A stretch of DNA of 64,000 nucleotides from the NCBI GenBank assembly GCA_965223295.1, contig CBDCWC010000003.1:1824001-1888000 (forward strand), in the 5' to 3' direction. The DNA is from Nitrospirales bacterium (GTDB taxonomy: Bacteria; Nitrospirota; Nitrospiria; Nitrospirales; UBA8639). Shown one piece after another: positions 9,994 through 25,914 of this stretch. The notes beneath the pieces are model-generated. The model saw nothing but the letters and a program-made list of their open reading frames with translations, was not told the origin of the DNA and did no database searches. How positions within the stretch are numbered: position 1 is the stretch's first letter; every line of letters begins with the position of its first letter. The position numbers and the translations under genes are program-made.

Positions 9994-10482
9994 CTATCCA
10001 CGTTGGGCAGGTTCAAATATCGACAGATTGTTTCCCGTCAAGGTATACGCTTTTCCAAATCCCATGACAAATTGTCCATGCAATGGTTGCAGATGAAATA
10101 ACACAAAGTCTGGTAGTTGCCGTAATAGTACTGCCGTCTTGCCATGCCGTGCCTGATAGTCATCGAGTATCGAGGGGTACTCAGGATGTTCAGGTGCAAG
10201 AAGTTGTGTCTGGCACTGATAATGGACCCTGGTTCTGGCAAAAATCTGTGATGTGGATTGTTCATCAGCAATAATCATTATTGCGACGGTCCCTTTGCTG
10301 AGTAGATCTTGTGTATGGACTGCTAGTTGACTGACAAAGATATAAAAACTGCACGGTGTTCGGTGCAGGTAAGGTGTATATCCACAGTGTGGAACACCGT
10401 CTTCTCCAACAGTAGAGAGCTGCAGACTTTGCATTTCTGCAATGAGCTTGGCGCAGACGCTTTCGGGCTTGTCATCGCTCAT
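9994..10482 (-). CDS. HugZ/HutZ-like (PNPOx split-barrel) heme utilisation protein
   Basis: LSTV..DGVPHCGYTPY, YIFVSQLAVHT, QIFARTR, LPDF.LF, FVMGFGKAY. Confidence 0.85.
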   Translation of the reverse strand: MSDDKPESVCAKLIAEMQSLQLSTVGEDGVPHCGYTPYLHRTPCSFYIFVSQLAVHTQDLLSKGTVAIMIIADEQSTSQIFARTRVHYQCQTQLLAPEHPEYPSILDDYQARHGKTAVLLRQLPDFVLFHLQPLHGQFVMGFGKAYTLTGNNLSIFEPAQRG

Positions 10483-11605: not shown

Positions 11606-12403
11606 ATGAGCTATCTCACAATTCCTGAGTTTCAACAGCATAAAAAAGACGGTAAAAAAATCACGGTGGTGACGGCTTATGATGCCTTGTTTACAAGCAT
11701 CATCGAGCAAGCTGGGTTGGAAGTCATTTTGGTTGGGGATTCTCTAGGGATGGTCGTCCAGGGAAAGCCGAATACAATATCCGTTACGATGGAGGATATG
11801 CTGTACCATACTCGAATGGTCGCAGGGGCAGCTCAACGAGCCTTGGTGATTGGAGACATGCCGTTTTTGTCCTATCAAGTGAATGTCGAGGAAGCCGTGC
11901 GAAATGCCGGACGCTTTCTTCAAGCCGGTGCGGTGGCGGTTAAACTGGAGGGAGGGTTGCCAGTCGTGGACCGTGTTGAAGCCATGACACGTTTTGGTAT
12001 TCCAGTCATGGGCCATGTCGGCATGACGCCACAGTCAGTCAATCAATCTGGGGGATACAAGGTTCAAGGAAAAGCGCAGGCTGCTGCCGATCAGATTATG
12101 CGAGAAGCCAAAGCCCTTGAAGAAGCCGGGGCTTTCGCGGTGGTGCTGGAATGTGTGCCGAGTTCATTGGCTCAAACGATCTCACAGGAACTCACGATTC
12201 CTACTATCGGTATTGGTGCTGGAGCAGGCTGTGATGGCCAAGTGCTTGTGCTCTATGATTTGTTAGGATTGTTTGACGATTTCGTCCCAAAGTTTGTGAA
12301 ACCTTATGCTCGTTTAAAAGCAGAAGCTCTGCAAGCCCTTTCGCGCTATAAGGAGGAAGTGGAATGTGGCAAGTTTCCTTCTGACGCAGAAAGCTACCAT
12401 TAA
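11606..12403 (+). CDS. panB: 3-methyl-2-oxobutanoate hydroxymethyltransferase
   Basis: TAYD, LVGDSLG, KLEGG, GIGAG..CDGQVLV. Confidence 0.97.
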   Translation: MSYLTIPEFQQHKKDGKKITVVTAYDALFTSIIEQAGLEVILVGDSLGMVVQGKPNTISVTMEDMLYHTRMVAGAAQRALVIGDMPFLSYQVNVEEAVRNAGRFLQAGAVAVKLEGGLPVVDRVEAMTRFGIPVMGHVGMTPQSVNQSGGYKVQGKAQAAADQIMREAKALEEAGAFAVVLECVPSSLAQTISQELTIPTIGIGAGAGCDGQVLVLYDLLGLFDDFVPKFVKPYARLKAEALQALSRYKEEVECGKFPSDAESYH

Positions 12404-12406
12404 CTA

Positions 12407-12550
12407 GTGAAAAGTGAGAAGTAAGGTATAAGGAGAGGACCAAAAAAATGAGAACAGATAACTGATCGGGTTATCTGTTCCCTGGCTATTTACCTTTTGT
12501 ATCGAACTTTTTCATTCTCACTCCTTACTTTTTACTCCTCACGACTCACT
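12407..12550. repeat. Heptamer-periodic palindromic element between convergent genes; possible bidirectional terminator
   Basis: GTGAAAA GTGAGAA GTAAGGT ATAAGGA, inner hairpin GAACAGATAAC/GTTATCTGTTC, then TCTCACT CCTTACT TTTTACT CCTCACG ACTCACT. Confidence 0.65.
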
Positions 12551-12554
12551 TCTT

Positions 12555-13376
12555 TCATAGTTTTTCCAGAATCTCCTGTCGTTTTTGTTGATATTCTTCC
12601 TCGCTTAGCAAATCGTCCTGTCGAAGTTCCTTTAGTCTTTGAAGCCGTGCCTTCGTGGACCGGTCAAGGGATTGGGACGAACCGGAGGTCCGCGCTTGTG
12701 GCTCAGGTGCAGTCCCATGCGTCGAGGAAAATAGGTTGAGAGGAAACACAAAATGAGGTGTTTGTGGCGACCACAGTTCAGTGGCCAGGCTATAGGTGAC
12801 TTGTTGGGCAGGCTTCATAGCCTTCAACGAATGCAGGGGTTGGCCTAATGGGAGTAACGGATTTTCTCTGATGTGTTGTGGAGGATGTTGTCCCGTGACA
12901 GTCTGACGGAAATTAGGAAGTACAAGATGTAGACGATGATCTTGAAGGTAGAGACCTCCCGATGTGAGTTCCCAAATGCCATTTCCCCGAGAGGTTGCCC
13001 AATAAAACGTGACGGTTTCCAGAGGTGTGGCTCGAGTCAGTGCCTGCGAAAGATGGTGCGAAAAAAAATCTCGTTGTTCTTCTGAGAAAGCCGTTTGGGT
13101 TGTTGAAGATCCTCCCACCATGCGGTCAAGCAGGGATGAGGGTTGCACTTCAACATGTTGCAATACTTGGTCGAGTGTCTCTGGGGGCACATGCGCAGGG
13201 TGCGAGTATTCAGGAGAGCCATTGCGATAAGTGACTTCCATGCCCACGGTTTTGTCGGGTTGCTCAACAAGAGATCGCATGGTTGAAGGATGTGATGAAC
13301 AATTGGTCGTCAACAATCCAATCGCAAGCCCTAGACCTACTAGTTGGGCTTTTAAAAATACGTGAGAAATTTCCAT
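12555..13376 (-). CDS. Putative lipoprotein with C-terminal SHOCT domain
   Basis: Hydrophobic signal followed by Cys (LLTTNC); C-terminal RLQRLKELRQDDLLSEEEYQQKRQEIL; start moved to 13376. Confidence 0.75.
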   Translation of the reverse strand: MEISHVFLKAQLVGLGLAIGLLTTNCSSHPSTMRSLVEQPDKTVGMEVTYRNGSPEYSHPAHVPPETLDQVLQHVEVQPSSLLDRMVGGSSTTQTAFSEEQRDFFSHHLSQALTRATPLETVTFYWATSRGNGIWELTSGGLYLQDHRLHLVLPNFRQTVTGQHPPQHIRENPLLPLGQPLHSLKAMKPAQQVTYSLATELWSPQTPHFVFPLNLFSSTHGTAPEPQARTSGSSQSLDRSTKARLQRLKELRQDDLLSEEEYQQKRQEILEKL

Positions 13377-13535
13377 TGAATGACTTTTCCCAAGAAGAAA
13401 AATGATGACATAAGACCAAAAGAATGTAACATGTATTAAAGAAAAGAGATAGAAAACTCTCTCCCTTGTGAAGAATTTCATATTCATTTCGCAAAGTTTT
13501 TCTGTGCTTGCTCACCGTTCAAGAAGTATCGGCCT

Positions 13536-14912
13536 ATGATCTATGAACTGATATTCCTTCGTCCTAAATTAAATACAATTTTGACGTTAGGGTTTGTCTT
13601 GTTTGTCTCCGCATTGCCAGGATGGATCCCGGATGCAGAAGCCATTCCAGCTTTTGCTAGGAAATACAAGGTCAATTGTCATGTGTGTCATACGCGACAG
13701 CCTCGGCTGAATCTCTTTGGAGAACAATTTCTGGAAAATGGCTACCAAATGCCCGGCACGGAGGATGGAGGTATTGTTGGTAAATTGAAGTACGGGGATC
13801 TGACATTGGAGCAGGTTTCCAATTATTTAGGGGTCCTCTTTGCGACAAGTGGTGTTGATCATGTTGAGCTTAAACGAGATGTCCCAGGATCAGGGGATCA
13901 AACAGAGTTAGGCACTCCTGCGATCATGAGAATGTTTACCGCTGGAACTGTCACCGACAACGTGGGGTTTTTTGTAGACATGACGACAATATTTGGTCGG
14001 TCTAGTGAGCTGGAACTGGGTCGGGCCTTTGTTACCTTCAATAATCTTGGTGGTATGAATTGGGGACATCTTCGTGTGGGGCGGCTGGATCCTTCGGCTT
14101 TTTTTTCTATGGCAAGGGGACGCCCACATTTTGTTCCGATCGGTCCCAAGCTGGCCCCACCGTTTGGTGCCTTTAACACGCCCACGGTCAATCGATGGTC
14201 GTTGACGCAGAGTGCCTATGCTTCGAAGTTTTATGGGTTGTTTGATCGTAGTCGAACCGCTATACAACCCTATGACTCAACCTTGTATAACTCGCCGGAA
14301 GAAGTAGGCATTGATATCCATGGACGACCATTTGGTGACTGGTTCCTCTACCAAGTAGGTATCTTAAATGGCGGAAATGAACGGGCAGGGGACTCCAATA
14401 ATTCCAAAGATTGGTATGTCATGGCCCGGTTTGATTACGCCCGATCGAATTATTTCTCTGCCAATCTTTCAGGGTTTGCCTATTTTGGCAATCATAACGC
14501 CAAGGTAGCTACCAATGCCGATGTCAGCCGGAGTCGCTATGGTGTGGGGGCACGCATGCGTTACAAATGGCTGGATGTCTATGGGGCTTATACCATTGAT
14601 CGAGTCACGGATTTGCCCAGTGGCATGGAAGCGAGTTTTGACTCGACAGCTACGGGGGTAACGGTGGAGGCTCATGCCATTGTGACCGATCGTCTGATGT
14701 TAGGGGTCAGGTATGACCATATGGATGCTGGAGGTCTCTTAGCGGAAAGGAAAAGTGCCACGTTTGCGGGCATACAAGTGAGATACTTTTTGCGATCAAA
14801 TATCTCATTGAATCTCCGAGACGATTTTAATGTTCGCGATTCGGAGGGGGGCAGTAGCGCTGCTCGGAATCTTCGGAATCGCTTATCAGTAGGCGTGGCA
14901 ATTGTCTTTTAA
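13536..14912 (+). CDS. Cyc2-like fused monoheme cytochrome c-outer membrane porin, paralog A
   Basis: Signal peptide, then AIPAFARKYKVNCHVCHTRQPRLNLFGEQFLENGY (Cyc2-type N-terminal heme motif); amphipathic beta-strands; terminal Phe. Confidence 0.82.
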   Translation: MIYELIFLRPKLNTILTLGFVLFVSALPGWIPDAEAIPAFARKYKVNCHVCHTRQPRLNLFGEQFLENGYQMPGTEDGGIVGKLKYGDLTLEQVSNYLGVLFATSGVDHVELKRDVPGSGDQTELGTPAIMRMFTAGTVTDNVGFFVDMTTIFGRSSELELGRAFVTFNNLGGMNWGHLRVGRLDPSAFFSMARGRPHFVPIGPKLAPPFGAFNTPTVNRWSLTQSAYASKFYGLFDRSRTAIQPYDSTLYNSPEEVGIDIHGRPFGDWFLYQVGILNGGNERAGDSNNSKDWYVMARFDYARSNYFSANLSGFAYFGNHNAKVATNADVSRSRYGVGARMRYKWLDVYGAYTIDRVTDLPSGMEASFDSTATGVTVEAHAIVTDRLMLGVRYDHMDAGGLLAERKSATFAGIQVRYFLRSNISLNLRDDFNVRDSEGGSSAARNLRNRLSVGVAIVF

Positions 14913-14921
14913 AAGGAGAAG

Positions 14922-15689
14922 ATGCCGATGCAAATCTCCATAAAATACTTTTGGTGGACAATAGTCTTGATTCTTCTGGTGTTTCAACCTGTTTTCGTGG
15001 CTGCCGGGACTACTAGGATGAACGATATCCAGAAAGGTCAGATTGTCTATGAACGGTCTTGCTTGGTTTGCCATGGAGCCAAGGGTCTTGGAGATGGCCC
15101 TGCGGCCTTTTACAATGCAGCCTTTTCAGCATCACGACCTAGAGATTTGACTGTGGGCAACTATAAGTTTCGCTCGACTGGTTCGGGGAGCCTTCCGCTT
15201 GATCAAGATTTGTTTCGTACGGTTACCAATGGTATTCCTGGCACAATGCCCTCGTTTAGTGGATTATCTGCAGAACAGCGTTGGCAGGTCGTAGCCTATA
15301 TCAAAACATTCTATGCTGGCTTTCAGGAGGAGATGCCTGAATTGGCGAGCATTCCCGAGTTTCCTATTGCACCTTCCGCCGATAGTGTGCAACGTGGGAA
15401 GGCTTTGTATCTGGAGATGGATTGTCATAGCTGTCACGGGGAGCAAGGTCAGGGAGATGTGGTCTTGGCAGGAGAGCTGAAGGATAGTACGAGATTACCC
15501 ATCGCACCGAATGATTTGACGAATCGTACAGGCTGGAAAAATGGGTCGACGGCGCGTGATGTGGTCAGAACGCTCTTTACGGGGTTTGATGGGACTCCTA
15601 TGCCGTCCTACGCGAGTCAATTTGTTGGTCAGGAGGAAGATGCCTGGCATTTAGCTAACTATGTGCTCTCACTTTCCCAATCTCATTAA
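14922..15689 (+). CDS. Periplasmic diheme cytochrome c, paralog A
   Basis: CLVCH and CHSCH; distal Met motifs GTMPSF and GTPMPSY; N-terminal hydrophobic segment. Confidence 0.9.
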   Translation: MPMQISIKYFWWTIVLILLVFQPVFVAAGTTRMNDIQKGQIVYERSCLVCHGAKGLGDGPAAFYNAAFSASRPRDLTVGNYKFRSTGSGSLPLDQDLFRTVTNGIPGTMPSFSGLSAEQRWQVVAYIKTFYAGFQEEMPELASIPEFPIAPSADSVQRGKALYLEMDCHSCHGEQGQGDVVLAGELKDSTRLPIAPNDLTNRTGWKNGSTARDVVRTLFTGFDGTPMPSYASQFVGQEEDAWHLANYVLSLSQSH

Positions 15690-15700
15690 CGGGTAGACTT

Positions 15701-16513
15701 ATGTACCAATGCCTCGTGAGACCTATTAATCCCAATCTAGGGAAATCGCTATATTCCTCTCAGAATTTGAAATCAAACTATTGTCGTTATTGGGCTGTTT
15801 TGCCCAAAACTGTCTTCCTCTGGGCTTCAATAGTCTTCGTTCTGGCTAATGGAATTGGTCTGGGTGAATTTTTGGGGCTATCGGCTTATGCAGGCACCGT
15901 GGAGGGCACTATTTATTACCAAGGTGTTATCCCTAAACCACGATTGAGGGCTGTGATCAAAGATCAAGAGTATTGTGGGGTGGGGGTCAGCATACAGACT
16001 GTCCATGTTCATGACGCCCAGGGAGCGTTAAGCGGGGCTGTTGTGAGTGTCGAAGGGATGAAAAGAGAAGAATATAGGAAAGACGGAACGAAGGATCGTA
16101 AGGTCATCAACATGCACTGTGCCTTTTCTCCTCGAATTGGCGTCGCTCGGCTAGGTCAGGATATTGAGGTACGCAATCAAGATCCTATCCTCCATAATAC
16201 ACATATTAGACTTGGTAAGCGCACTATTCTTAATGTGGCGCAAGTCCCTGGAGGGAAGCCGATTGTGAAGCGGTTAAAGCGATCCGGGCTGCACTCAGTT
16301 CGGTGTGATAAACACATATTTATGGAATCCTCTCTGTATGTCTTCAACCATCCCTTTTATGATCTGACCGACAAAGCTGGAGCATTCCGGATTTCCGGTA
16401 TTCCACCGGGAAAGCATCCCATCCAGGTGTGGCACGAAACTCTCGGCATTCTGGAGAAAGTGGTGCGCGTTCCCAAAGAAGATACCGTCCGTATTGATTT
16501 TGCCTACCCGTAA
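15701..16513 (+). CDS. Exported cupredoxin-like plus carboxypeptidase-regulatory-like domain protein, paralog A
   Basis: ILHNTH ... CDKHIFM (His + C-x2-H-x2-M); TDKAGAFRISGIPPGKHPIQVWHE; start uncertain. Confidence 0.75.
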   Translation: MYQCLVRPINPNLGKSLYSSQNLKSNYCRYWAVLPKTVFLWASIVFVLANGIGLGEFLGLSAYAGTVEGTIYYQGVIPKPRLRAVIKDQEYCGVGVSIQTVHVHDAQGALSGAVVSVEGMKREEYRKDGTKDRKVINMHCAFSPRIGVARLGQDIEVRNQDPILHNTHIRLGKRTILNVAQVPGGKPIVKRLKRSGLHSVRCDKHIFMESSLYVFNHPFYDLTDKAGAFRISGIPPGKHPIQVWHETLGILEKVVRVPKEDTVRIDFAYP

Positions 16514-16681
16514 TTTCTTTTTATCCTATATTGAGATTCTTTAGTATCGCTTCCTAAAAACCGAAAATCTTATTGGACGTGTAGGTCCAACTCTATTCTT
16601 GGGCGCTCTGATGACGAGTGCGCCCTGTGCTAAGAAGGGACTCAATTGAGATGATGAGTAGATTGATCACTGGATATTGCG

Positions 16682-19600
16682 ATGCCTAAGGGTCAAACTC
16701 TCAACCATTCTTTGCTAGGCTGGTTTCGTCGGAAATGGCAGGGGAGTGTAGTCTTCCGTATTTCAACCAGTTTGACCCTTTGCATTGGGTTACTGGTGTT
16801 TGTAGGAGCCATGTTGATTGGCTATAGCCAACGTCAATTACTGGAACAATTGTTTCGGGAACGAGGTCTTGCCGTCGCCAGAACCTTTTCCACTCTTGGT
16901 TCCGGGGCCATTCTGAACCATTTATTCCGTATCCAAGAAGCAATGCCTGCATATGCCAAAGATGGCCATCTCGAAATATTGGAAGTCCTTGATGAAGATC
17001 GTATGGTGATTGCTTCGATGGAGCCCGCCAGGATTGGGGAAATCATCGAAGATCCGCGACTCATAGAAGCTCAGGAATTGGCCAGGGAAGTTGAGGGGTT
17101 TGTGGATAGTCCCGATGGCAGTTCCATGTATATGGTGATTGAGCCGTTGTTTGATCAAAACGAAATTCTGGCATGGGTCCGTGTCGGATTTTCAATGGAA
17201 CGGGTACAGGAAAAAGAACATGAGCTATGGTTTGGCCTAGTACTCATGGCAAGTCTTTTTATTGGGTTGGCGATTGTGGGGGTTCGGCAAGGATTGAATC
17301 AAATCCTTCCTATGTTACAGGGGATGATCAAAAAGCTTCAGGATGTGGCCAAGATGACTGATGCTGGGATGCTTCAAGGAACTGAAAATGTTCACGATGC
17401 ATCTCTTCTTGGTCTCAGAAATAATGAGATGAAAGGAGAAGTTGAGCAATTAGCTAGTGTGGCGACTCAGACCGCAGATTTATTGGAAGATCGCACAAAA
17501 ACTCTTCAAGGATTAATGCTGGCTCAAGAGGAGAAAAATCGAGAATTGACTCGATTAGCTTCGTTCCCTGAGCTGAATCCGAATCCAGTCATCGAATTAA
17601 ATCTTCAGTACCAGGTTACCTATATTAATCCATCAGGTACACGGCTACTCCCTGACTTAGTTGCCGTGGGCTTGGCCCACCCACTTTTTAAAAGTTTCAA
17701 AGATTCATTGGACTATGTGGTCCATGCTGGGTCTGTCAGTGTGGTGCAAGAATCCTCGGTGGGTGAACGAGTCTTTGAAACCCAAATCACGTTCTTAGAA
17801 TCCAGTCAAGTGATCCGTGTGTATTTTCATGAAGTGACCCAAAGAAAAATTGCTGAGCAAAAAGTTCACAAGGTGGCCCGGGAGTTAGAACTGAATAATC
17901 AGGAGTTAGCTCAATCTCGTGATGTGGCGTTAGAGGCTGCCAAAGCGAAGTCAAATTTTTTGGCGATGATGAGTCATGAAATTCGAACGCCCATGAACGG
18001 AGTGATTGGCATGACCGGTCTCTTGCTAGATACAGAATTAGATGAAGTTCAGCGCAAGATGACGGAGACTGTGAGAGGGTCGGGTGAAGCCTTGCTGACG
18101 ATCATCAATGATATCTTAGATTTCTCGAAGATGGAGGCTGGTAAATTTGAATTAGAGGATATTCCCTTTGATCTTCAGTCCTGTGTTGAGGAAGTGTTGG
18201 ACCTGCTTGCTGAACGAGCGAATGAAAAAAATCTCGAACTAACTAGTTGTATTTTCCAAAAGGTTCCACCCATCTTACGGGGTGACCCCGGACGTTTCCG
18301 GCAAATCCTCATGAATCTGGTAGGTAATGCCATTAAATTTACGGAGGTAGGGGAAGTCTCCGTTCAAGTCTTTCCCGAAAAACAAAGTGAACAAGAAATA
18401 ATATTACAGATACAGGTGTCTGATACCGGAATCGGGCTCACTTCTGAACAGCAAGCCAAACTCTTTCAACCATTTACCCAGGCTGATGGCTCCACCACAC
18501 GAAAATTTGGAGGGACAGGCCTAGGGTTGGCTATCTCGAAACAGTTGGCGGAAGCCATGAATGGCTCTATTGCCGTCACCAGTCAACCTGGTGACGGGAG
18601 TTGCTTTTCCGTGAGATTGCCGTTCCAGCTAGCTCAGCATGTTCATGAAGGTACTGATGAATCTCCTGTGTTGCAGGGCCTCAAAATCTGTTGTGTTGAT
18701 GATAACCAGACCAATCGAATGGTGCTTCACTATTATACGCAGGCTTGGGGTATGGATGGTGTATTCGCGGAGGATGGCAGAAAAGCCTTGTTGTTACTGC
18801 GAGAATGTCATGATCAGGGGAAGCCCTGTGACATCGCTGTTCTAGATCTCAATATGCCGAACATGGATGGTTTGGAGCTTGCACAGACCATTAAAGCTGA
18901 TCCTGCCCTTCAAGACCTGAAACTTGTGCTACTCTCATCAAGTGGCCTTCGAGGAGACAACGCGCGCGCGCAGAAAGTTGGGTTTGAGTCGTATCTCAGT
19001 AAACCTGTCCGAAAAGGGGACCTGAAGTCTTGTTTAGAGATGATCATGACCCCTTCGAATACATCTGTTGTCGACAGTTTCCATTCGGTGAAAAAACAGG
19101 AAAACGATGCGCTCTCGGCTCCTTGTATTTCTGGGTTACTGTTGGTGGTTGACGATCATGTGGTCAATCAACAACTAGCGCAAATGATGTTAGAACGGTT
19201 AGGGCATCGTGTTGATGTGGTTGGGAATGGCCTGGAAGCGCTCGAAGCCTTAAGGCAGATTCCATATGATCTGGTCCTTATGGATTGTCAAATGCCAGAA
19301 ATGGATGGATATGAAGCTACACGATTGATCAGAAGGGCAGAAAGTGAAATGTTAGAAGTAAAAGGTCAGGAGGCAGGAGCAAAGAGTGGGAGGCCAGATA
19401 AGAACGGTTCTGAAACTCCTGACTCCTTGCCCTTTTCCCCTCACTCCCGCCGCATTCCGATTGTGGCTATGACCGCCAATGCCATGAAGGGGGATCGGGA
19501 GAAATGTATCGATGCGGGTATGGACGATTATATTAGCAAACCTATCAAACCCCAAGACCTGGAAGACATTCTCGCGAAATGGTTGTCGGTGAAGGAGCAT

Positions 19601-20083
19601 CCTGAGCTGACGACCGATCAAGAGACGATCACCCCTGGTTTTCAAGAAGATGTTCACGCAACGTCCGAGCCCGTTTCTCCGTCCGAGGCGAGTTCAACGG
19701 TTTTTGACCAGGGGACCTCCTCGGAGCCTGTGCTCTCGCCTCAAATGGTGGCTGATTGGCGGATGGCTGGAGGGAGTGATTTTGTCGCGAAACTCGTAAA
19801 TCAATTTGTTTCAGATGCCGTGGCATGTGTAGACGATATTGGCGTTGCGTTAGATTTCCAAAATGCCAATGATGTACGCGAAGCGGCTCATGGGTTAAAA
19901 GGGATGGCAGCTAATATGGGACTGCCGGAGTTAGCGACTATGGCGCATCAATTAGAATCTCTTGGGCGCGAGCAGAATCTTTGCAATGGCACTGATCTGT
20001 TTGCTTCCGTACAACAGGAATTCTCGCGTATTCAGGCCGGGCTGCAGCTTATGCTGGAACAAGAGCACTCCCGTAGAGAGTGA
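16682..20083 (+). CDS. Membrane hybrid histidine kinase (TM-sensor-TM, PAS-like, HisKA, HATPase, 2 x REC, Hpt)
   Basis: [48 protein letters not shown]. Confidence 0.93.
19344..19451. repeat. Heptamer-periodic palindromic element lying in frame within REC2 of the kinase
   Basis: GTGAAAT GTTAGAA GTAAAAG GTCAGGA GGCAGGA GCAAAGA GTGGGAG ... TCCTGAC TCCTTGC CCTTTTC CCCTCAC. Confidence 0.6.
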
Positions 20084-20175
20084 AAAGTGAGAAGTAAAAA
20101 AAGTATTTTGTTTAGTCTCTTGCTTTTTACGTTTACCTTCTCACTTTTTTCTCCTTACGCTTCACGAATCTTCAC
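20080..20175. repeat. Heptamer-periodic palindromic element between convergent genes; possible terminator
   Basis: GTGAAAAGTGAGAAGTAA is identical to 12407-12424; complementary arm contains TTTTTAC, TTCTCAC, TCCTTAC, GCTTCAC. Confidence 0.65.
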
Positions 20176-20903
20176 GGGGCTGGAAAGTCAATATTCAGAA
20201 TAGCGTTGTTTGGTTGCGGAATGGTGACTTTTTGCCGCACCGTGCCTAAGGTTTCGTGCCAAAGCGAGAGGGTATATGTTCCAAATGAGAGGTTCGGAAT
20301 AGTAAAGTGTCCGTAACTATCGGTCACGGTGTGGTAGGGATGGGGGAACACATGAATGATACCGTTCATGAAAGGATGTTTATTACATGTGACTGTCATA
20401 GGACCTGGCTCTCTCAAGACCTTCTGAACACCTTTTGCCTGAGGAAGTAACACGACATTGATAAATGCACGAGTTTTGGTGCGAACATGGGTGTTATGCA
20501 AGATGTTATCGAGATTTTCGATGGCCAATTTTTGTTTTACGGTTGCCGTGACTGCGTGCTTTAAGAATTGACATCCCTTGTTGACAATCGTTTTTGTAGG
20601 TTCTGGCTCCTCGTTGGAGCTATCCTGTCCTTCAATTTCCACACTCACAATGACGTCCTGTAACCCTTTATCCTCAGCAAGGACAACGGATTCCAACTCA
20701 CGGGTCTTTCCACAGACCTCGATATCTTTTTTAATGATAACTTCTTCCATGGGCGGAAGAGGTCCGAGGTAGACGACTTTCCCTTGCAGAGAGGTGGTTT
20801 GGGCGTTGCCGATCTGAGCAACATTAAAGATTCCAGTAAACCAGAGCACAGTAAAGAAGAGGGTTCGTTGAATTTGCCGATGACTGGGACGGTGGTTTGT
20901 CAT
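20172..20903 (-). CDS. Exported cupredoxin-like plus carboxypeptidase-regulatory-like domain protein, paralog B
   Basis: ILHNTH ... CNKHPFM; TDSYGHFTIPNLSFGTYTLSLWHE; signal peptide; homologous to 15701-16513. Confidence 0.78.
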   Translation of the reverse strand: MTNHRPSHRQIQRTLFFTVLWFTGIFNVAQIGNAQTTSLQGKVVYLGPLPPMEEVIIKKDIEVCGKTRELESVVLAEDKGLQDVIVSVEIEGQDSSNEEPEPTKTIVNKGCQFLKHAVTATVKQKLAIENLDNILHNTHVRTKTRAFINVVLLPQAKGVQKVLREPGPMTVTCNKHPFMNGIIHVFPHPYHTVTDSYGHFTIPNLSFGTYTLSLWHETLGTVRQKVTIPQPNNAILNIDFPAP

Positions 20904-20958
20904 GTTGCTAAGACTCTATTCGGAGAGTATATTCAGGAACAGGTTGTCGATCCACTAT

Positions 20959-21142
20959 GGGTCTGTTGAAAAAAGCCGCCAACTGCGTTCTCGCCATTTT
21001 GCCGTGCTCACGTATTGCCAGTACGCTCCGCGCGGCAAAATGGCTGTGGCCTTGCTGGACGGACTTTTTTGAGCCGACCCGACGCTTCTGACCGTCCAAG
21101 CCTTCCTAATGAAATATGACCTTTGATATCTTCATTACTCCC
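20959..21142 (-). mobile_element. ~190 bp MITE, copy 3 (7-nt deletion in one terminal repeat)
   Basis: GGGTCTGTTGAAAAAA ... ATTACTCCC; target-site duplication ACTAT at 20954-20958 and 21143-21147. Confidence 0.9.
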
Positions 21143-21219
21143 ACTATCGGTTCTTTTGTTGTAGCCCAAATGAGAATGTGGCGCCAGGTGATTGTGTACA
21201 CGGAGCCTCTCCGTCTCTC

Positions 21220-22032
21220 CTATTGTGGTGATAATGATAAGAGATAATTGACGAGGTGCCAAATATCTTCAGGATTGGGGGAGAGAGCCTCCTGATAGGA
21301 GGCCATAGGGGTGCCATCCAGGCCGGTGAGTATGCTTATTGCGATGTCTCGCGGTTGCTGTCCGTTTTTGAATGAAGAAGGGTTGTGTAAGTCACGGGGA
21401 AGGATATCTAAATTACGGCGGTCCCGTAATTTGCCTTGTTCATAGAGTCCTCCGGGCATCGTGGCCTCAGGGCCATGGCACTTGGCGCAATCTAATAGTT
21501 CATACAACTCATGACCCCGGGTAATGCTGTGAGCTGTTGCCGGCAATGGGCCAGATGCTAGCGCAATAGGTGTTCGTTCTATTTCTTCGAAAAGTGGCGA
21601 GAACTGTTTGATATAGTTAACAAGGTCCCATCGTTGGTTTTCAGAAAAGCTTCGAAATGATGGCATGTAGCCAGGGATGCCGTTAGTAATCGTCTGAAAA
21701 AGATCATAATCGGTTGGCGGTTCCCCAGAAGGGGTGGAGCGGAACTTATATTCTCCACCAACGAATTCTCGAGGACGTGGTGCGGAATAGGCTCCTAAAT
21801 AAAAGGCGTCCGGCCCGTCGCCTACTCCAGTTTTCCCATGACAGAGCAAACAAGATTGTTCATACAGGCGCTTACCTCTTGCGAGGGAATCTGAAGGATT
21901 GCTTTGAGGCTTAGCAGCAAATAAAGGGGTGAGGCCTACAGTGGACCACAACATCACCCCCAGCAGGGGGGCAACAATTCTCTGCTGGTACGACTGGCTA
22001 AAACACCACATCTGCGCCGACAAAAAAGCCAT
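21220..22032 (-). CDS. Periplasmic diheme cytochrome c, paralog B
   Basis: CLLCH and CAKCH; GYMPSF, GTPMASY; homologous to 14922-15689; start 22032 or 22011, overlapping the porin gene end. Confidence 0.88.
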   Translation of the reverse strand: MAFLSAQMWCFSQSYQQRIVAPLLGVMLWSTVGLTPLFAAKPQSNPSDSLARGKRLYEQSCLLCHGKTGVGDGPDAFYLGAYSAPRPREFVGGEYKFRSTPSGEPPTDYDLFQTITNGIPGYMPSFRSFSENQRWDLVNYIKQFSPLFEEIERTPIALASGPLPATAHSITRGHELYELLDCAKCHGPEATMPGGLYEQGKLRDRRNLDILPRDLHNPSSFKNGQQPRDIAISILTGLDGTPMASYQEALSPNPEDIWHLVNYLLSLSPQ

Positions 22033-23374
22033 TACGAAAATTCCTTGCTGAGGAACGGCCCCCTTGGGCCTTTCGAAGATTGAAATCATCACGCAGAAAA
22101 AGCGCGATATTGGATCGAATGTAATATTTGGCAATCAGGGCCAATAACGAGTGGCTGGTTCGTTGGCTTCGCAGGCCGCCAGCATCCAGATGATCGTATC
22201 GGAGGCCGACCAGAATTCGATCAGTTGCCAACACGTTGGCTTCGAGCGTGACTCCCGTGGCTGAGTTATCGATTTGGCTGTCTGCAGATTTAGGAAGGCC
22301 CGTCAATCGGTCTACGACGAAGGCTCCATAGACATCCACCATATGGTAACGGATATTTGCCAAGAACCCATATTGGCTCCAGTTCGCATTGGCTGCGGAA
22401 GCCACCTTGGCGTTGTTACGGCCAAAATAGGCAAAGCCAGAAAAATTGACCGAAAAATACTCAGACTGCGCAAAATCAAAACGGGTGAGGACATACCAGT
22501 CTTTGGATTTATTAGAATCGCCAAAGGATTCGTTGGCACCATTGAGAATACCGACTTGATATAAAAACCAATCACCAAAGGGACGGCCATGGAGGTCAAG
22601 ACCCATTTCAGCCACGGCATGAAATAAGGATGGAGCCGTGGGCAAGATGGTGGTTCCTCTTCGATCAAATAGGCCGTAAAATTTATTAGCAAAAGCTGCG
22701 GGCGCGAGGCCGATACGGTTAATCGTGGGATCCATGAATGATCCGTTATCCTCCGAATTGTCTCCCACCAGTTCAAAGTGTTGCCGAAGTGTGGCATAAG
22801 ACGAATATGCGGAAGGATCAAGTTTCCCGACCCGGAGGTGTGCCCAATCATGTTGCCCGAAATTATTGAACGTCAGGAAGGCGCGTTCAATCCCAGTTTC
22901 ATCTTCTTCAAGATTAGATTCTAGCTCAACAAAAAAACCGACATTATTGGTGACGGTTCCGGCGGTAAACATGCTGAAGACCTCCGGAAAACCCAGCTCA
23001 GTCCGGTCTTGTGGGTTGCCGGCGATATTTGACCCGGCAGCCTTGCGGGAATACTCAAAATTTCTGAGAACATTGCCACGGAGTCGAAAGCCCAGGTAAT
23101 TGGTGACATCATCCAGTGTGAGGTCGCCCAGTAGTGATTTTTTAATCGAGTCGCCGTCTTCGGTGCCTGGCAGTTGATAGCCATTTTCCAAAAACCGTTC
23201 GCCGGTCCGGTTTAACCGCGGAACACGGGTATGACAAACTGTGCAGTTCACGTCATACTTTCTGGCGAAGGCCGGGATGGCTTGGGCATCTGGGGGAATA
23301 ACCAGTGAATCGAAGAGAGTGAAGGATGTAAGAAGGAGCATGACAGGAGTTGTGACGGAAAAAATTCGTTTCAT
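21998..23374 (-). CDS. Cyc2-like fused monoheme cytochrome c-outer membrane porin, paralog B
   Basis: AIPAFARKYDVNCTVCHTRVPRLNRTGERFLENGY; long blocks identical to paralog A (HGRPFGDWFLYQVGILNG, SKDWYV, SGFAYFG); terminal Phe. Confidence 0.82.
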   Translation of the reverse strand: MKRIFSVTTPVMLLLTSFTLFDSLVIPPDAQAIPAFARKYDVNCTVCHTRVPRLNRTGERFLENGYQLPGTEDGDSIKKSLLGDLTLDDVTNYLGFRLRGNVLRNFEYSRKAAGSNIAGNPQDRTELGFPEVFSMFTAGTVTNNVGFFVELESNLEEDETGIERAFLTFNNFGQHDWAHLRVGKLDPSAYSSYATLRQHFELVGDNSEDNGSFMDPTINRIGLAPAAFANKFYGLFDRRGTTILPTAPSLFHAVAEMGLDLHGRPFGDWFLYQVGILNGANESFGDSNKSKDWYVLTRFDFAQSEYFSVNFSGFAYFGRNNAKVASAANANWSQYGFLANIRYHMVDVYGAFVVDRLTGLPKSADSQIDNSATGVTLEANVLATDRILVGLRYDHLDAGGLRSQRTSHSLLALIAKYYIRSNIALFLRDDFNLRKAQGGRSSARNFRNGFFVGADVVF

Positions 23375-23448
23375 GAAAATCTGTGAATACGATGGTGGAG
23401 AAAAGATCTAAGCGGAGAAGCTATCTAAATGGTAGTAAAACATCGCAG

Positions 23449-23469
23449 TATGTCAAGGCAGTTGACATA
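23449..23469. promoter_or_regulatory. Perfect 8-bp inverted repeat TATGTCAA-N5-TTGACATA; candidate operator or -35 element
   Basis: Lies in the divergent region between paralog B and pheA; the minus strand reads TTGACA-N16-TACCAT. Confidence 0.5.
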
Positions 23470-23696
23470 TGCATTAGTGGTAGAACGGGGCTAGCGACTT
23501 TGTCGCGCGCTGACGGAATATTGGACGGAGGTGTACTGTGTGAGAGTCTCTAATTTTCGTGCAAAAGCTTACTAGATTTGCTGGGATATGAGGGCAAAGG
23601 AGACGATGGTTTAGCTTGCCATAGAAAGGTATTCTTAGTATGCTCCGAGCTGGTTGCATCAGATGATTCATTGTCGTTAGAAAAAGGATCGCTGGA

Positions 23697-24779
23697 ATGG
23701 ATATGCCAGACAATATCCAAGGGTGCCGGGAAGAGATTGATCGGCTTGATGATGAAATTCTCAAGCTGTTGAATGAACGTTCCCAATATGTGATTCAAGT
23801 CGGCAAATTGAAAAAGAAACAGGACGCGGCTGCCCATTTGCATACCCAAGGTCGGGAAGCCGCCCTGGTCAAGCGATTGATGGAGAACAACCCTGGACCG
23901 TTTCCCAGTGAAGCCCTCCGTCCCGTCTATCGCGAAATCATGTCTGCTTCGTTGTCCCTAGAAGGCACTCAAACAATTGCCTATCTTGGTCCGCCTGCCA
24001 CATTTACCCATTTAGCGGCCATGCGGAAATTTGGCGAATCGGCTGAGTATCTTCCTGTGACGAGTATTAAGGATGTGTTTGATGATGTTGAGCGGGGACG
24101 CGTGCGGTTTGGCGTCGTACCCATTGAGAATTCGACCGAAGGTGTGGTCAATCATACATTAGACTTGTTTGTTGATTCGCCGTTGCTCATTTATGGCGAA
24201 GTGATGATGGAAATTTCTCACCATTTTTTATCCAAAGCGCAGAATATTGAGGACATCAAAACAATCTATTCCCACCCACATGCCATTGCCCAATGTCGAA
24301 ACTGGTTAGAAACCCATGTGCCGTCGGTGTCTATTGCTGAAGAGCCAAGTACGGCCAAGGCTGCAGAGCGATGCGTCAGCGATCCAACGGCGGCAGCTAT
24401 TGCCTCAGAGTTAGCGGCGCAACTTTATGGATTAACGATCTTGCGCTCTCGCATTGAAGATAACACGAATAATTTTACGAGATTTCTGATATTGTCTTTA
24501 CGTGGGGCCGAACGGACAGGGAAAGATAAGACCTCTTTTATTGTCTCGGCCAAAGACAAGGTTGGGGCGCTCTATGATCTGATCCGTCCCTTCTCATCGC
24601 ATGGCATCAACATGACGAAAATTGAATCGCGACCCACTCGACGGAAAGTCTGGGAATACTTGTTTTTCATGGACTTAGAAGGTCATCAAGATGATGACCG
24701 CGTCAAGAAAGCCCTAGACGAAGTGAAAACACGCTCTTTGTTTTTGAAAGTGTTAGGATCCTATCCCATTCACCAGTAG
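23697..24779 (+). CDS. pheA: Chorismate mutase/prephenate dehydratase
   Basis: REEIDRLD (CM domain), YLGP, PIENSTEG, NFTRF, IESRP (ACT). Confidence 0.96.
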   Translation: MDMPDNIQGCREEIDRLDDEILKLLNERSQYVIQVGKLKKKQDAAAHLHTQGREAALVKRLMENNPGPFPSEALRPVYREIMSASLSLEGTQTIAYLGPPATFTHLAAMRKFGESAEYLPVTSIKDVFDDVERGRVRFGVVPIENSTEGVVNHTLDLFVDSPLLIYGEVMMEISHHFLSKAQNIEDIKTIYSHPHAIAQCRNWLETHVPSVSIAEEPSTAKAAERCVSDPTAAAIASELAAQLYGLTILRSRIEDNTNNFTRFLILSLRGAERTGKDKTSFIVSAKDKVGALYDLIRPFSSHGINMTKIESRPTRRKVWEYLFFMDLEGHQDDDRVKKALDEVKTRSLFLKVLGSYPIHQ

Positions 24780-24819
24780 TCTCGGTCCACAAACGTTCAG
24801 CATATCCGGATTGTTTGAT

Positions 24820-25914
24820 ATGGCCTTACATGTTCATCCGACGATTGCTTCGTTGAACCCCTATTCTCCAGGGAAACCCCTTTCTGAATTGGAACGGGAA
24901 CTCGGGATTTCTGAAGCCATTAAATTGGCGTCTAACGAAAATCCGTGGGGGCCGTCTCCGAAGGCCCGGCAAGTTCTTGAGCAGGCGTCGGCGTCACTGC
25001 ATCGATACCCTGATGGCGGAGCGCATGCGTTACGGGAAGCATTAGCCAAGAAATGGCAGATGCCTCAGGATCAAATTCTTGTGGGCAATGGATCGGATGA
25101 AGTCATCAGCCTGCTGATCAAAACGTTCCTTGCCCCTGGCGATGAAGCGGTCATGGCGGATTTGACCTTTGTCATGTATCGCCTGTCCGTACTAGGCGGG
25201 TATGGGGTGCCGGTTGAAGTGCCCTTGAACAATTGGACCCATGATTTGCCAGCCATGGTGGGGGCAATCACTGACCGCACCCGTCTGTTCTTTATTTGTA
25301 ATCCGAATAATCCGACGGGCACGATGCTATCCGCGAAAGAGATCGACTTAGCGCTGGCTAAGATTCCCGAAAATGTGGTGGTCGTGTTTGATGAGGCCTA
25401 TTACGAGTATGTTCGAGATGCAGAATATCCAGATAGTTTGGGCTATGTTCGAGATGGACGACCGGTGGTCGTGCTGCGGACGTTTTCGAAGATCTATGGC
25501 CTGGCAGGTTTGCGCGTGGGCTATGGAATCACGACATCAGAGATTGCCAGCTATGTGAATCGCGTGCGCCCTCCTTTCAATGTCAATAGTTTGGCACAGG
25601 AAGCGGCTCAAGCGGCTTTGTTGGATGACGAGCATGTAGCGAAGAGTCGTGCTATGAATGAAGCGGAAATGATCTTTCTGGAAGAAGGGTTAACCAAGAT
25701 GGGGTTCACGACTATTCCCACTCAAGCTAATTTTATATATTTTGATGTTGGGATGGATGGTGCCGTTCTCTATGATGCGCTGCTTCGGGAAGGGGTGATT
25801 GTGCGTCATATTCGTGGGTCGATGATCCGGGTTACAGTTGGTCAGCCTACGGAAAATCGGCGGCTTCTAGAGGCACTTGAGCATGTGTTATCAACCCTGT
25901 CAAAAACCGCGTGA
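24820..25914 (+). CDS. hisC: Histidinol-phosphate aminotransferase
   Basis: KLASNENP, GNGSDE, NPNNPTG, DEAY, RTFSKIYGLAGLRVG. Confidence 0.95.
   Translation: MALHVHPTIASLNPYSPGKPLSELERELGISEAIKLASNENPWGPSPKARQVLEQASASLHRYPDGGAHALREALAKKWQMPQDQILVGNGSDEVISLLIKTFLAPGDEAVMADLTFVMYRLSVLGGYGVPVEVPLNNWTHDLPAMVGAITDRTRLFFICNPNNPTGTMLSAKEIDLALAKIPENVVVVFDEAYYEYVRDAEYPDSLGYVRDGRPVVVLRTFSKIYGLAGLRVGYGITTSEIASYVNRVRPPFNVNSLAQEAAQAALLDDEHVAKSRAMNEAEMIFLEEGLTKMGFTTIPTQANFIYFDVGMDGAVLYDALLREGVIVRHIRGSMIRVTVGQPTENRRLLEALEHVLSTLSKTA

Follow-up and report, generated by a model that had tools for sequence, protein, structure and literature searches.

Twin Cyc2-type cytochrome-porin cassettes converging on one hybrid histidine kinase in a Nitrospirales bacterium

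The rus operon of Acidithiobacillus ferrooxidans encodes Cyc2, the dihaem cytochrome Cyc1, rusticyanin and an aa3 oxidase. The chain encoded there and the locus described here, which lies in a 64,000-nucleotide (nt) stretch of the genome of a Nitrospirales bacterium (GenBank assembly GCA_965223295.1, contig CBDCWC010000003.1, positions 1,824,001 to 1,888,000; the whole stretch is called the window), are built from the same three types of component, that is, an outer-membrane monohaem porin, a periplasmic dihaem cytochrome c and a type-1 copper protein. Unlike the rus operon, the locus contains no oxidase genes; its copper protein is amicyanin-like with an additional immunoglobulin-like (Ig-like) domain and is not a rusticyanin, its dihaem protein is closest to Kustc0457 of Kuenenia, and a hybrid histidine kinase is part of the unit. 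In the list of open reading frames (ORFs) of the window, seven ORFs make up two three-gene cassettes, named A and B, which converge on one hybrid kinase of 1133 amino acids (aa). Two paralogous cassettes of the same gene order around this kinase had already been claimed in a sequence-only reading of the window, the ORF positions of which proved to be exact, with identities of 55, 46 and 31% between the paired genes. What is added here is a conserved four-part module, a cupredoxin that standard annotation has missed, its predicted docking on a dedicated sensor, and a layout of two inputs and one kinase. The features concerned are as follows, with positions in the window.

13536–14912, + strand: A1, Cyc2-type fused monohaem cytochrome-porin, 458 aa, cassette A
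13641–13709, + strand: A1 haem motif AIPAFARKY-KVN-CHVCH-TRQ-PRL, residues 36–58, from the sequence
14922–15689, + strand: A2, predicted periplasmic dihaem c-type cytochrome, 255 aa
15701–16513, + strand: A3, predicted exported amicyanin-like cupredoxin with C-terminal Ig-like (CarboxypepD_reg-like) domain, 270 aa
16193–16324, + strand: A3 putative copper-ligand stretch H165 ... C202-x2-H205-x2-M208, from the alignment
16682–20083, + strand: hybrid sensor histidine kinase, 1133 aa, with transmembrane helix, periplasmic sensor, transmembrane helix, HisKA, HATPase_c, receivers and Hpt
16823–17227, + strand: periplasmic sensor domain of the kinase, residues 48–182, with conserved LFRIQEA motif
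20172–20903, − strand: B3, predicted cupredoxin with Ig-like domain, paralogue of A3, 243 aa, cassette B
20367–20498, − strand: B3 putative copper-ligand stretch H136 ... C173-x2-H176-x2-M179, from the alignment
21220–22134, − strand: B2, predicted dihaem c-type cytochrome, longest ORF 304 aa
21998–23374, − strand: B1, Cyc2-type fused monohaem cytochrome-porin, 458 aa, cassette B
23213–23281, − strand: B1 haem motif AIPAFARKY-DVN-CTVCH-TRV-PRL, residues 32–54, from the sequence

Fused cytochrome-porins are represented by Cyc2 of A. ferrooxidans, Cyc2PV-1 of Mariprofundus and Cyt572 of Leptospirillum, with which A1 and B1 have the motifs, the single CxxCH, the PxL, the length of about 400–500 aa and the 16-strand porin in common. 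According to the published definition (Keffer et al. 2021, PMC8406198), a Cyc2 has a signal peptide, one CxxCH, the motif AxPxFAR[Q/K][T/Y] upstream of it, which is called unique to Cyc2, a PxL four residues after the CxxCH, a porin of 16 strands and a total length of at least 365 aa. In both barrels the sequence AIPAFARKY-x3-CxxCH-x3-PRLN..GE.FLENGY is present, and its columns are invariant or nearly so in an alignment of 25 homologues. There is exactly one CxxCH in each barrel (residue 48 in A1, residue 44 in B1), the PxL follows in both, with P56 and L58 invariant in the 25 sequences, and the C-termini end in Phe (...IVF in A1, ...VVF in B1), just as the sequence-only reading had described. 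The AIPAFARKY motif stands three residues before the first Cys, the definition speaking of "5 amino acids upstream", so that the counting convention may differ. By inspection, the hydrophobic N-termini ending in ...DAEA/IP (A1) and ...DAQA/IP (B1) have the form of signal peptides.

The AlphaFold2 (AF2) model of A1, with a predicted local distance difference test (pLDDT) value of 74, has 16 long strands, the fifth and sixth of which are joined by a long loop, and the Foldseek search with it returned the 16-strand porins OmpF, Omp32 and chitoporin at E about 1e-12 to 1e-13; the haem domain appears at low confidence because it was modelled without haem. No match for the barrels was given by Pfam or NCBIfam. 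A search with the barrel profile yielded 3319 cluster representatives at E ≤ 1e-3, and among the best 150 of these, 87 have at least 365 aa; a single CxxCH, always before residue 70, is found in 86 of the 87, and the PxL after it in 80. By every sequence criterion tested, the barrels belong to the superfamily of Cyc2-type fused cytochrome-porins, which is the family that had been suggested for them, and they probably bind haem, as these family features indicate.

The barrel by itself is already known and is not new, because Cyc2 homologues in Nitrospirales have been published. A 2024 preprint placed Nitrospira Cyc2 in cluster 3 by a tree and FeGenie, in three clades of Nitrospira only that do not group with sequences of Fe or Mn oxidisers, and proposed metal oxidation by Nitrospira from this cluster-3 cyc2. 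Cyc2 homologues in nitrifying Nitrospirales are also mentioned by Yu et al. 2022, the FeGenie paper flags Candidatus (Ca.) Nitrospira defluvii for Cyc2, a similarity-network study ties Cyt572 to a cluster with Nitrospira and Acidobacteria homologues, and a 2025 paper gives cyc2-like genes found by FeGenie in metagenome-assembled genomes (MAGs) of a marine nitrite-oxidising Nitrospirales family. It has been reported that Cyc2 from all three clusters oxidised Fe(II) in assays, including a cluster-3 Cyc2 from a Thermodesulfovibrionia bacterium, another member of the Nitrospirota, when made in E. coli. The close homologues of the barrels are labelled Nitrospira, Nitrospirales or Nitrospirota, and all of them are named "hypothetical protein". 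The genome encodes two alpha subunits of type II dimethyl sulfoxide (DMSO) reductase, of 1146 and 1150 aa, which is the size of a periplasmic NxrA. With these subunits and with relatives titled Nitrospirales or Nitrospira, the lineage looks like that of a nitrite oxidiser, which agrees with the earlier surmise.

The second gene of each cassette carries two CxxCH motifs, which lie at residues 47 and 168 in A2. Pfam assigns the domains Cytochrome_CBB3 and Cytochrom_C to A2 and matches B2 as well, and A2 is aligned to chain B of PDB entry 6h5l over residues 37–253 at E 2.2e-44. This entry is the structure of a hydroxylamine oxidoreductase (HAO)-type protein of Kuenenia stuttgartiensis. In that organism, the HAO-like Kustc0458 is described as having been crystallised together with the dihaem cytochrome Kustc0457, with which it forms a stable complex and which lengthens its haem chain; judged from the two papers and the chain length, chain B is probably Kustc0457. 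The homology between Kustc0457 and A2 is clear over the whole mature protein, and both have two c-type haem sites. Unlike Kustc0457, the partner in the present locus is a monohaem porin and not an octahaem HAO, and no HAO-like gene adjoins. By motif, domain and profile evidence, the second genes are dihaem class-I c-type cytochromes. Two other proteins of this family were seen: in the same genome, a protein of 662 aa (C2:1747977-1749965, L130:6177-8165) combines the same dihaem family domain (188 bits) with an EB_dh domain, that is, an ethylbenzene-dehydrogenase-type haem domain, and in other loci an ORF of 481 aa (L013:7014-8459, − strand; L081:8309-9754) matches the dihaem profile where the separate cupredoxin ORF is missing and the kinase is directly next, which may be a fusion of dihaem cytochrome and cupredoxin or a frame error.

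The third genes both carry LHNTH and C-x2-H-x2-M (CDKHIFM and CNKHPFM). In an alignment of 20 sequences, C92, C140, H165, C202, H205, M208, W244 and H245 of A3 are invariant, and in one of 22 sequences, so are H136, C173, H176 and M179 of B3. The cupredoxin family profile matches amicyanin at a modest E of 2e-4 with the copper ligands aligned, and the AF2 model of B3 (pLDDT 85.6) retrieves amicyanin in Foldseek at E 7.6e-7 with a target template modelling (TM) score of 0.70, and further pseudoazurin, plastocyanin and CuA domains. The curated cupredoxin models of Pfam (Copper-bind, Cupredoxin_1) do not match, the only Pfam hit being a sub-threshold CarboxypepD_reg at the C-terminus, and in the Atlas the clusters closest to it go by the name "hypothetical protein". 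Thus, by fold and ligand pattern, the third genes encode an exported amicyanin-like type-1 cupredoxin with an Ig-like domain that is missed by standard annotation, and A3 and B3 would bind copper, to judge from the ligands and the family. The two CxxCH of the second genes, the 6h5l match, the invariant H/C/H/M set and the amicyanin match bear out the dihaem cytochrome and cupredoxin that the sequence-only reading had named as partners of the barrels.

In the same genome, there are also seven distant paralogues of the cupredoxin-Ig protein, in all of which C-x2-H-x2-M is kept. Two of them stand in tandem beside a multicopper-oxidase-like protein of 1698 aa and one beside another of 1644 aa, two adjoin Tll0287-like proteins, and one cluster is near a bd-like oxidase subunit. 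Their positions are as follows.

C2:1763368-1770386: distant cupredoxin paralogues
C2:311193-312125: distant cupredoxin paralogue
C2:270588-271520: distant cupredoxin paralogue
C2:1440225-1441184: distant cupredoxin paralogue
C3:1487211-1488014: distant cupredoxin paralogue

Between its two transmembrane helices, the kinase has a periplasmic domain of some 135 aa with a weak sCache_3_2 match; these are followed by HisKA, HATPase_c, receiver domains and Hpt, all of which Pfam finds above its cut-offs. The best NCBIfam matches of the kinase core are TorS, LuxQ and BarA, and since every NCBIfam match, the ArcB-type included, is below the curated cut-off (BarA 491.8 bits against 890, TorS 484.8 against 676.5), the kinase is the orthologue of no named kinase. 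The periplasmic domain is kept from family to family and carries a motif of the LFRIQEA type that does not vary; in an alignment of 14 cassette-linked kinases, L81, R83, Q85, E86, D104, D106, I118, G119 and others are invariant. Homology of this sensor to the Tll0287-like proteins beside the distant cupredoxins was considered and ruled out at the sequence level, the hhalign probabilities being 0.1% and 0.4%. A second kinase of the same sensor-domain family, of 862 aa with PAS and one receiver, is encoded in the same genome at C2:1605780-1608368 (L129:5480-8068), and two short cupredoxin relics (L129:5177-5387; A3 residues 67–104 and 240–269, with a stop codon) are directly upstream of it on the other strand, which together look like a decayed third unit. 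In some Nitrospira loci (L009:5947-8082, and loci of the L012 and L015 type), a REC-PAS-GGDEF-EAL protein comes next after the cassette-linked kinase and suggests a cyclic di-GMP (c-di-GMP) output of the relay.

How far these genes belong together can be seen from their distribution in the phylum. A1 has matches at E ≤ 1e-5 in 111 of 401 genomes of the phylum, many of them covering the haem domain only. Among five sampled other genomes of the genus of the window, three have the twin arrangement between panB/folD and pheA (L003–L005), one has a single cassette with the kinase at this site and the second cassette elsewhere (L007, L006), and one is without a match. Loci of the sister family (L009–L021) as a rule have all four genes on one strand, in the order barrel-dihaem-cupredoxin-kinase, and the cupredoxin and kinase genes often overlap. 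A further 73 named loci (L051–L123), which may overlap the loci of the genome survey, were scanned with hidden Markov models from our own alignments. The dihaem gene is immediately downstream of the barrel in 65 of these 73, the others being five barrels at contig ends and three without it. A kinase with the sensor domain is present in the locus for 58 of 65 cupredoxin genes: in 41 it follows directly on the same strand, with gaps of −136 to +295 nt, in 7 the two genes are placed 3′-to-3′ as B3 is to the kinase, and in 10, split kinase ORFs included, it stands elsewhere in the locus; four cupredoxin ORFs are cut by contig ends and three are without a kinase. Where the gene order is altered, the cupredoxin-kinase pair is found ahead of barrel-dihaem (L080, L089, L108, L109, L111, L114).

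From these counts it follows that the module consists of two linked pairs, that is, porin-cytochrome with dihaem cytochrome and cupredoxin with kinase. Unlike the gene for known Cyc2, the barrel gene here is firmly linked to a gene for a Kustc0457-like dihaem protein, to which the cupredoxin-kinase pair is added in Nitrospirales. In the sequence-only reading, the kinase was flanked by the cassettes and the three cassette genes were expected to be conserved together. The position of the kinase stands, and it is not merely flanked but is a part of the conserved unit across Nitrospirales; as to the three genes, the linkage of barrel and dihaem holds, but the cupredoxin goes with the kinase and is absent from class-level loci within the flanks covered. 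The twin form, with two cassettes and one kinase, occurs on seven named contigs (L052–L054, L056, L058, L059/L122, L070). Among the sources of the named loci are Ca. Nitrospira defluvii, which has been studied in enrichment for a long time and has the four-gene unit (L110), a N. lenta MAG, Nitrospira MAGs from sand filters and marine Nitrospirales MAGs. The cassette is undescribed in the accessible parts of the literature on Nitrospira cyc2 and cupredoxins, among them passages on Nitrospira and its relatives in PMC10654088 and passages of PMC10367259, and the logic of two linked pairs was not found in print there either; supplements and figures, such as the Cyc2 trees on figshare and zenodo, may show such gene neighbourhoods.

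The two cassettes have diverged considerably. A1 and B1 are 55% identical over 451 aa (E 1e-175), A2 and B2 46% (E 6e-76), and A3 and B3 31% (E 2e-40), and the genome of 3.78 Mb in 3 contigs contains exactly two such barrels, A1 and B1. When a tree is built from the barrels, clades A and B and the clade of the sister family form an unresolved three-way split within a well-supported group, because of which both cassettes appear, on the tree, to be about as old as the split of the two families. The duplication and divergence that had been proposed are therefore borne out as an old paralogy, and a recent tandem inverted duplication is ruled out by the three-way split and the low identities. In one member of the genus, the barrel in the B slot (L004:3321-4709) groups with the A clade and is 59% identical to B1, which suggests replacement or conversion, and in another relative (L061:13373-14727) no more than fragments of cassette B are present; of the two cassettes, A seems to be the more stable.

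A known design is that of TorT-TorS and LuxP-LuxQ, in which a soluble periplasmic co-receptor is encoded beside a HisKA-HATPase-REC-Hpt hybrid kinase. Unlike TorT and LuxP, the candidate co-receptor here is a redox protein and not a solute-binding protein. Because the linkage pattern resembles such pairs, the complex of A3 (residues 65–270) with the sensor of the kinase (residues 48–182) was modelled in three runs with 3 controls. The complex score, which is a model's confidence, is 0.69 (runs 0.70, 0.69 and 0.69), and the best of the 3 controls reached 0.00. Of 157 solved complexes, 116 attain this mark, and of 215 mismatched pairs, 2 do so, counts that are only rough for this case because our own alignments were used in the prediction. 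The runs agree in at least 96% of the contacts, and the partner pLDDT is at least 86. On the side of the sensor, the interface consists of its most conserved motif, with residues 78–86, 104, 110–112 and 118–119, including L81, Q85, E86, D104, I118 and G119; on the side of A3, it is the face around the copper ligands and includes H165, N166, N178, V179, K190 and C202, with the stretches 164–166 and 202–204, and N178, V179 and K190 are invariant. Residues conserved to at least 90% number 8 of 18 in the interface of the kinase (3.1 expected, hypergeometric P 0.003) and 7 of 19 in that of the cupredoxin (3.3 expected, P 0.03). That is to say, the model supports, and does not prove, a binding of A3 to the kinase sensor through its copper-site face. 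Among the papers listed for cupredoxins, sensor histidine kinases and Cache domains, judged by titles and the beginnings of abstracts, no case of a cupredoxin paired with a kinase sensor was met with. A solved complex of a cupredoxin and a Cache domain is not known. The predicted binding points to signalling as much as to respiration.

On this basis, the locus can be read as encoding an electron chain, either regulated or serving as a sensor, that leads from the surface of the cell to a phosphorelay and exists in two diverged input versions, a reading to which we give close to, though slightly under, an even chance. The haem of the barrels A1 and B1 would take single electrons from a dissolved extracellular reductant, the precedents speaking most for Fe(II), with Mn(II) as a possible donor. 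The periplasmic dihaem cytochromes A2 and B2 would accept these electrons and hand them on to the type-1 copper proteins A3 and B3, and the copper protein would dock with its copper-site face on the periplasmic sensor of the kinase between the cassettes. The kinase would then read the redox or copper-loading state of this last carrier and drive a His-Asp-His phosphorelay, the response regulator of which would be encoded outside the locus. The donor, the direction and the order of electron flow in this scheme are those that the protein families suggest. More specifically, it is possible, and is put forward with some reserve, that the copper protein is a redox-switchable blue-copper co-sensor, the Cyc2-type porin and the dihaem cytochrome wiring the external redox state or the content of Fe(II) or Mn(II) to the kinase and the twin cassettes being two input channels for different donors or potentials. 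In the Cys-x2-His-x2-Met loop of amicyanin, the His flips on reduction, and such a flip in the amicyanin-type loop would provide the predicted interface with a conformational switch that is already built in.

A number of observations weigh against the sensing chain. First of all, in class-level relatives, 7 of 7 loci (L025–L031) consist of barrel and dihaem only, the fetched flanks being without cupredoxin and kinase, so the core chain is independent of these two; a few loci outside the phylum also have barrel and dihaem only. Cassette B is without a kinase of its own, and in B3, 9 of the 19 residues aligned with the interface differ from A3, the only one of the two that was modelled with the kinase. 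The interface conservation is not independent of the model, because the alignments were part of the model's input and copper ligands are conserved in any case. A kinase that covers the copper-site face would also block the usual electron port of a cupredoxin, an arrangement that fits signalling and is ill-suited to high flux. The distant paralogues beside oxidase-type genes imply that the cupredoxin fold also serves as an ordinary carrier. In addition, the 2024 preprint could not link Nitrospira Cyc2 to Fe or Mn, and the function of cluster 3 is called the least certain of the clusters (Keffer et al. 2021, PMC8406198). The window contains no response regulator gene. As for expression, no RNA run carrying the locus was found among the sequencing runs searched, and three RNA runs contain almost none of its words; four runs of unstated kind from one study contain 0.61–0.65 of them.

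The best surviving alternative, which is in line with the electron conduit proposed in the sequence-only reading and which we consider rather unlikely, is a purely respiratory conduit, in which electrons from extracellular Fe(II) or Mn(II) would pass from the barrel through the dihaem cytochrome and the cupredoxin to a terminal oxidase and yield energy. Fe(II) or Mn(II) would then be a second lithotrophic substrate, the kinase an ordinary operon regulator with Cache-like sensing of a small ligand, and the cassettes isoforms for different donors, potentials or conditions. The types of component match the published models for Acidithiobacillus and Zetaproteobacteria, where Cyc2 works with rusticyanin and the dihaem Cyc1, and both the Fe(II) oxidation assayed for all three Cyc2 clusters and the proposal of the preprint on Nitrospira metal oxidation point the same way, as do the bd-like and multicopper-oxidase-like neighbours of the distant paralogues and the kinase-free pairs of barrel and dihaem in class-level relatives. 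However, no terminal oxidase or bc-type complex gene adjoins the cassettes in the window, their neighbours being the housekeeping genes folD, panB, pheA, hisC and aro. When the gene order changes, the cupredoxin stays with the kinase and not with the barrel, its copper-site face is predicted to be buried on the kinase sensor, with the score far above that of the best control, and a c-di-GMP signalling protein ends some of the loci. Moreover, growth of Nitrospirales on Fe(II) or Mn(II) is unreported in the accessible parts of the cyc2 papers on Nitrospira and Nitrospirales.

It is improbable that the locus is a copper status sensor, in which the kinase would read the copper loading and not the redox state of the cupredoxin, and the haem proteins would tune or protect the cupredoxin. 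Such a sensor would suit the predicted interface, which covers the copper ligands H165 and C202, as well as the known design of co-receptors beside hybrid kinases, but it leaves the strict linkage of barrel-dihaem to the cupredoxin-kinase pair unexplained; a full H/C/H/M type-1 site is suited to electron transfer and not to reversible metal sensing, and the window is without copper-efflux or copper-chaperone genes. Least probable is an outward export, by which electrons from the periplasm would reach Mn(III/IV), an oxidant or the like outside the cell and which would serve as a sink or a defence under low oxygen. Porin-cytochromes could in principle run both ways and the potentials of type-1 copper and c-type haem would fit high-potential acceptors, but every Cyc2 assayed in the published work available is an Fe(II) oxidase and the locus gives no hint of a donor on the quinol side.

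As for the layout of the locus, the gaps in cassette A are 9 nt between A1 and A2 and 11 nt between A2 and A3, the kinase gene starts 168 nt downstream of A3 on that strand, and the 3′ end of B3 faces the 3′ end of the kinase at a distance of 88 nt. The gap between B2 and B3 is 316 nt (20904–21219), against the 11 nt between A2 and A3, and a similar gap of 307 nt is found in L003; a promoter-like site at 21262–21234 (− strand) is near this gap, such sites being no more frequent than in shuffled sequence, and B3 may have a promoter of its own. The longest ORF of B2 extends 137 nt into B1; Met42 (nt 22011), which would yield a normal signal peptide, is more likely to be the start than the first codon of this ORF. 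The promoter and terminator scans gave 12 and 14 sites against 14.1 ± 3.6 and 10.9 ± 3.3 in shuffles, and thus no operon evidence, and an Rfam scan of 12000–25000 at E ≤ 0.1 gave zero matches. Divergent from A1 lies a gene at 12555–13487 (− strand) for a protein of 310 aa with a C-terminal SHOCT domain, which occupies the same position in the genus relatives L003–L005 and L007 (41–75% identity), and a relative of 29% identity adjoins another barrel-like gene in L042; this protein might be part of the module. A HutZ/HugZ-like protein of the haem-utilisation or haem-oxygenase family, below the NCBIfam cut-offs, is encoded at 9994–10482 (− strand), 3 kb upstream of cassette A.

In soils, oceans and water works, nitrite is oxidised mainly by Nitrospira and its marine relatives. 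The cluster-3 cyc2 in Nitrospira has raised the question of iron or manganese oxidation, for which, in the published work as far as accessible, a functional handle was lacking until now. The module names the likely electron partners of this protein, and the predicted contact gives residues to mutate; since Ca. Nitrospira defluvii carries the four-gene unit, such experiments are feasible. If the kinase does read the redox state of the copper protein, these bacteria would sense extracellular redox chemistry through an electron wire and not through ligand binding, and cyc2 in metagenomes would not automatically mean an iron-oxidising metabolism.

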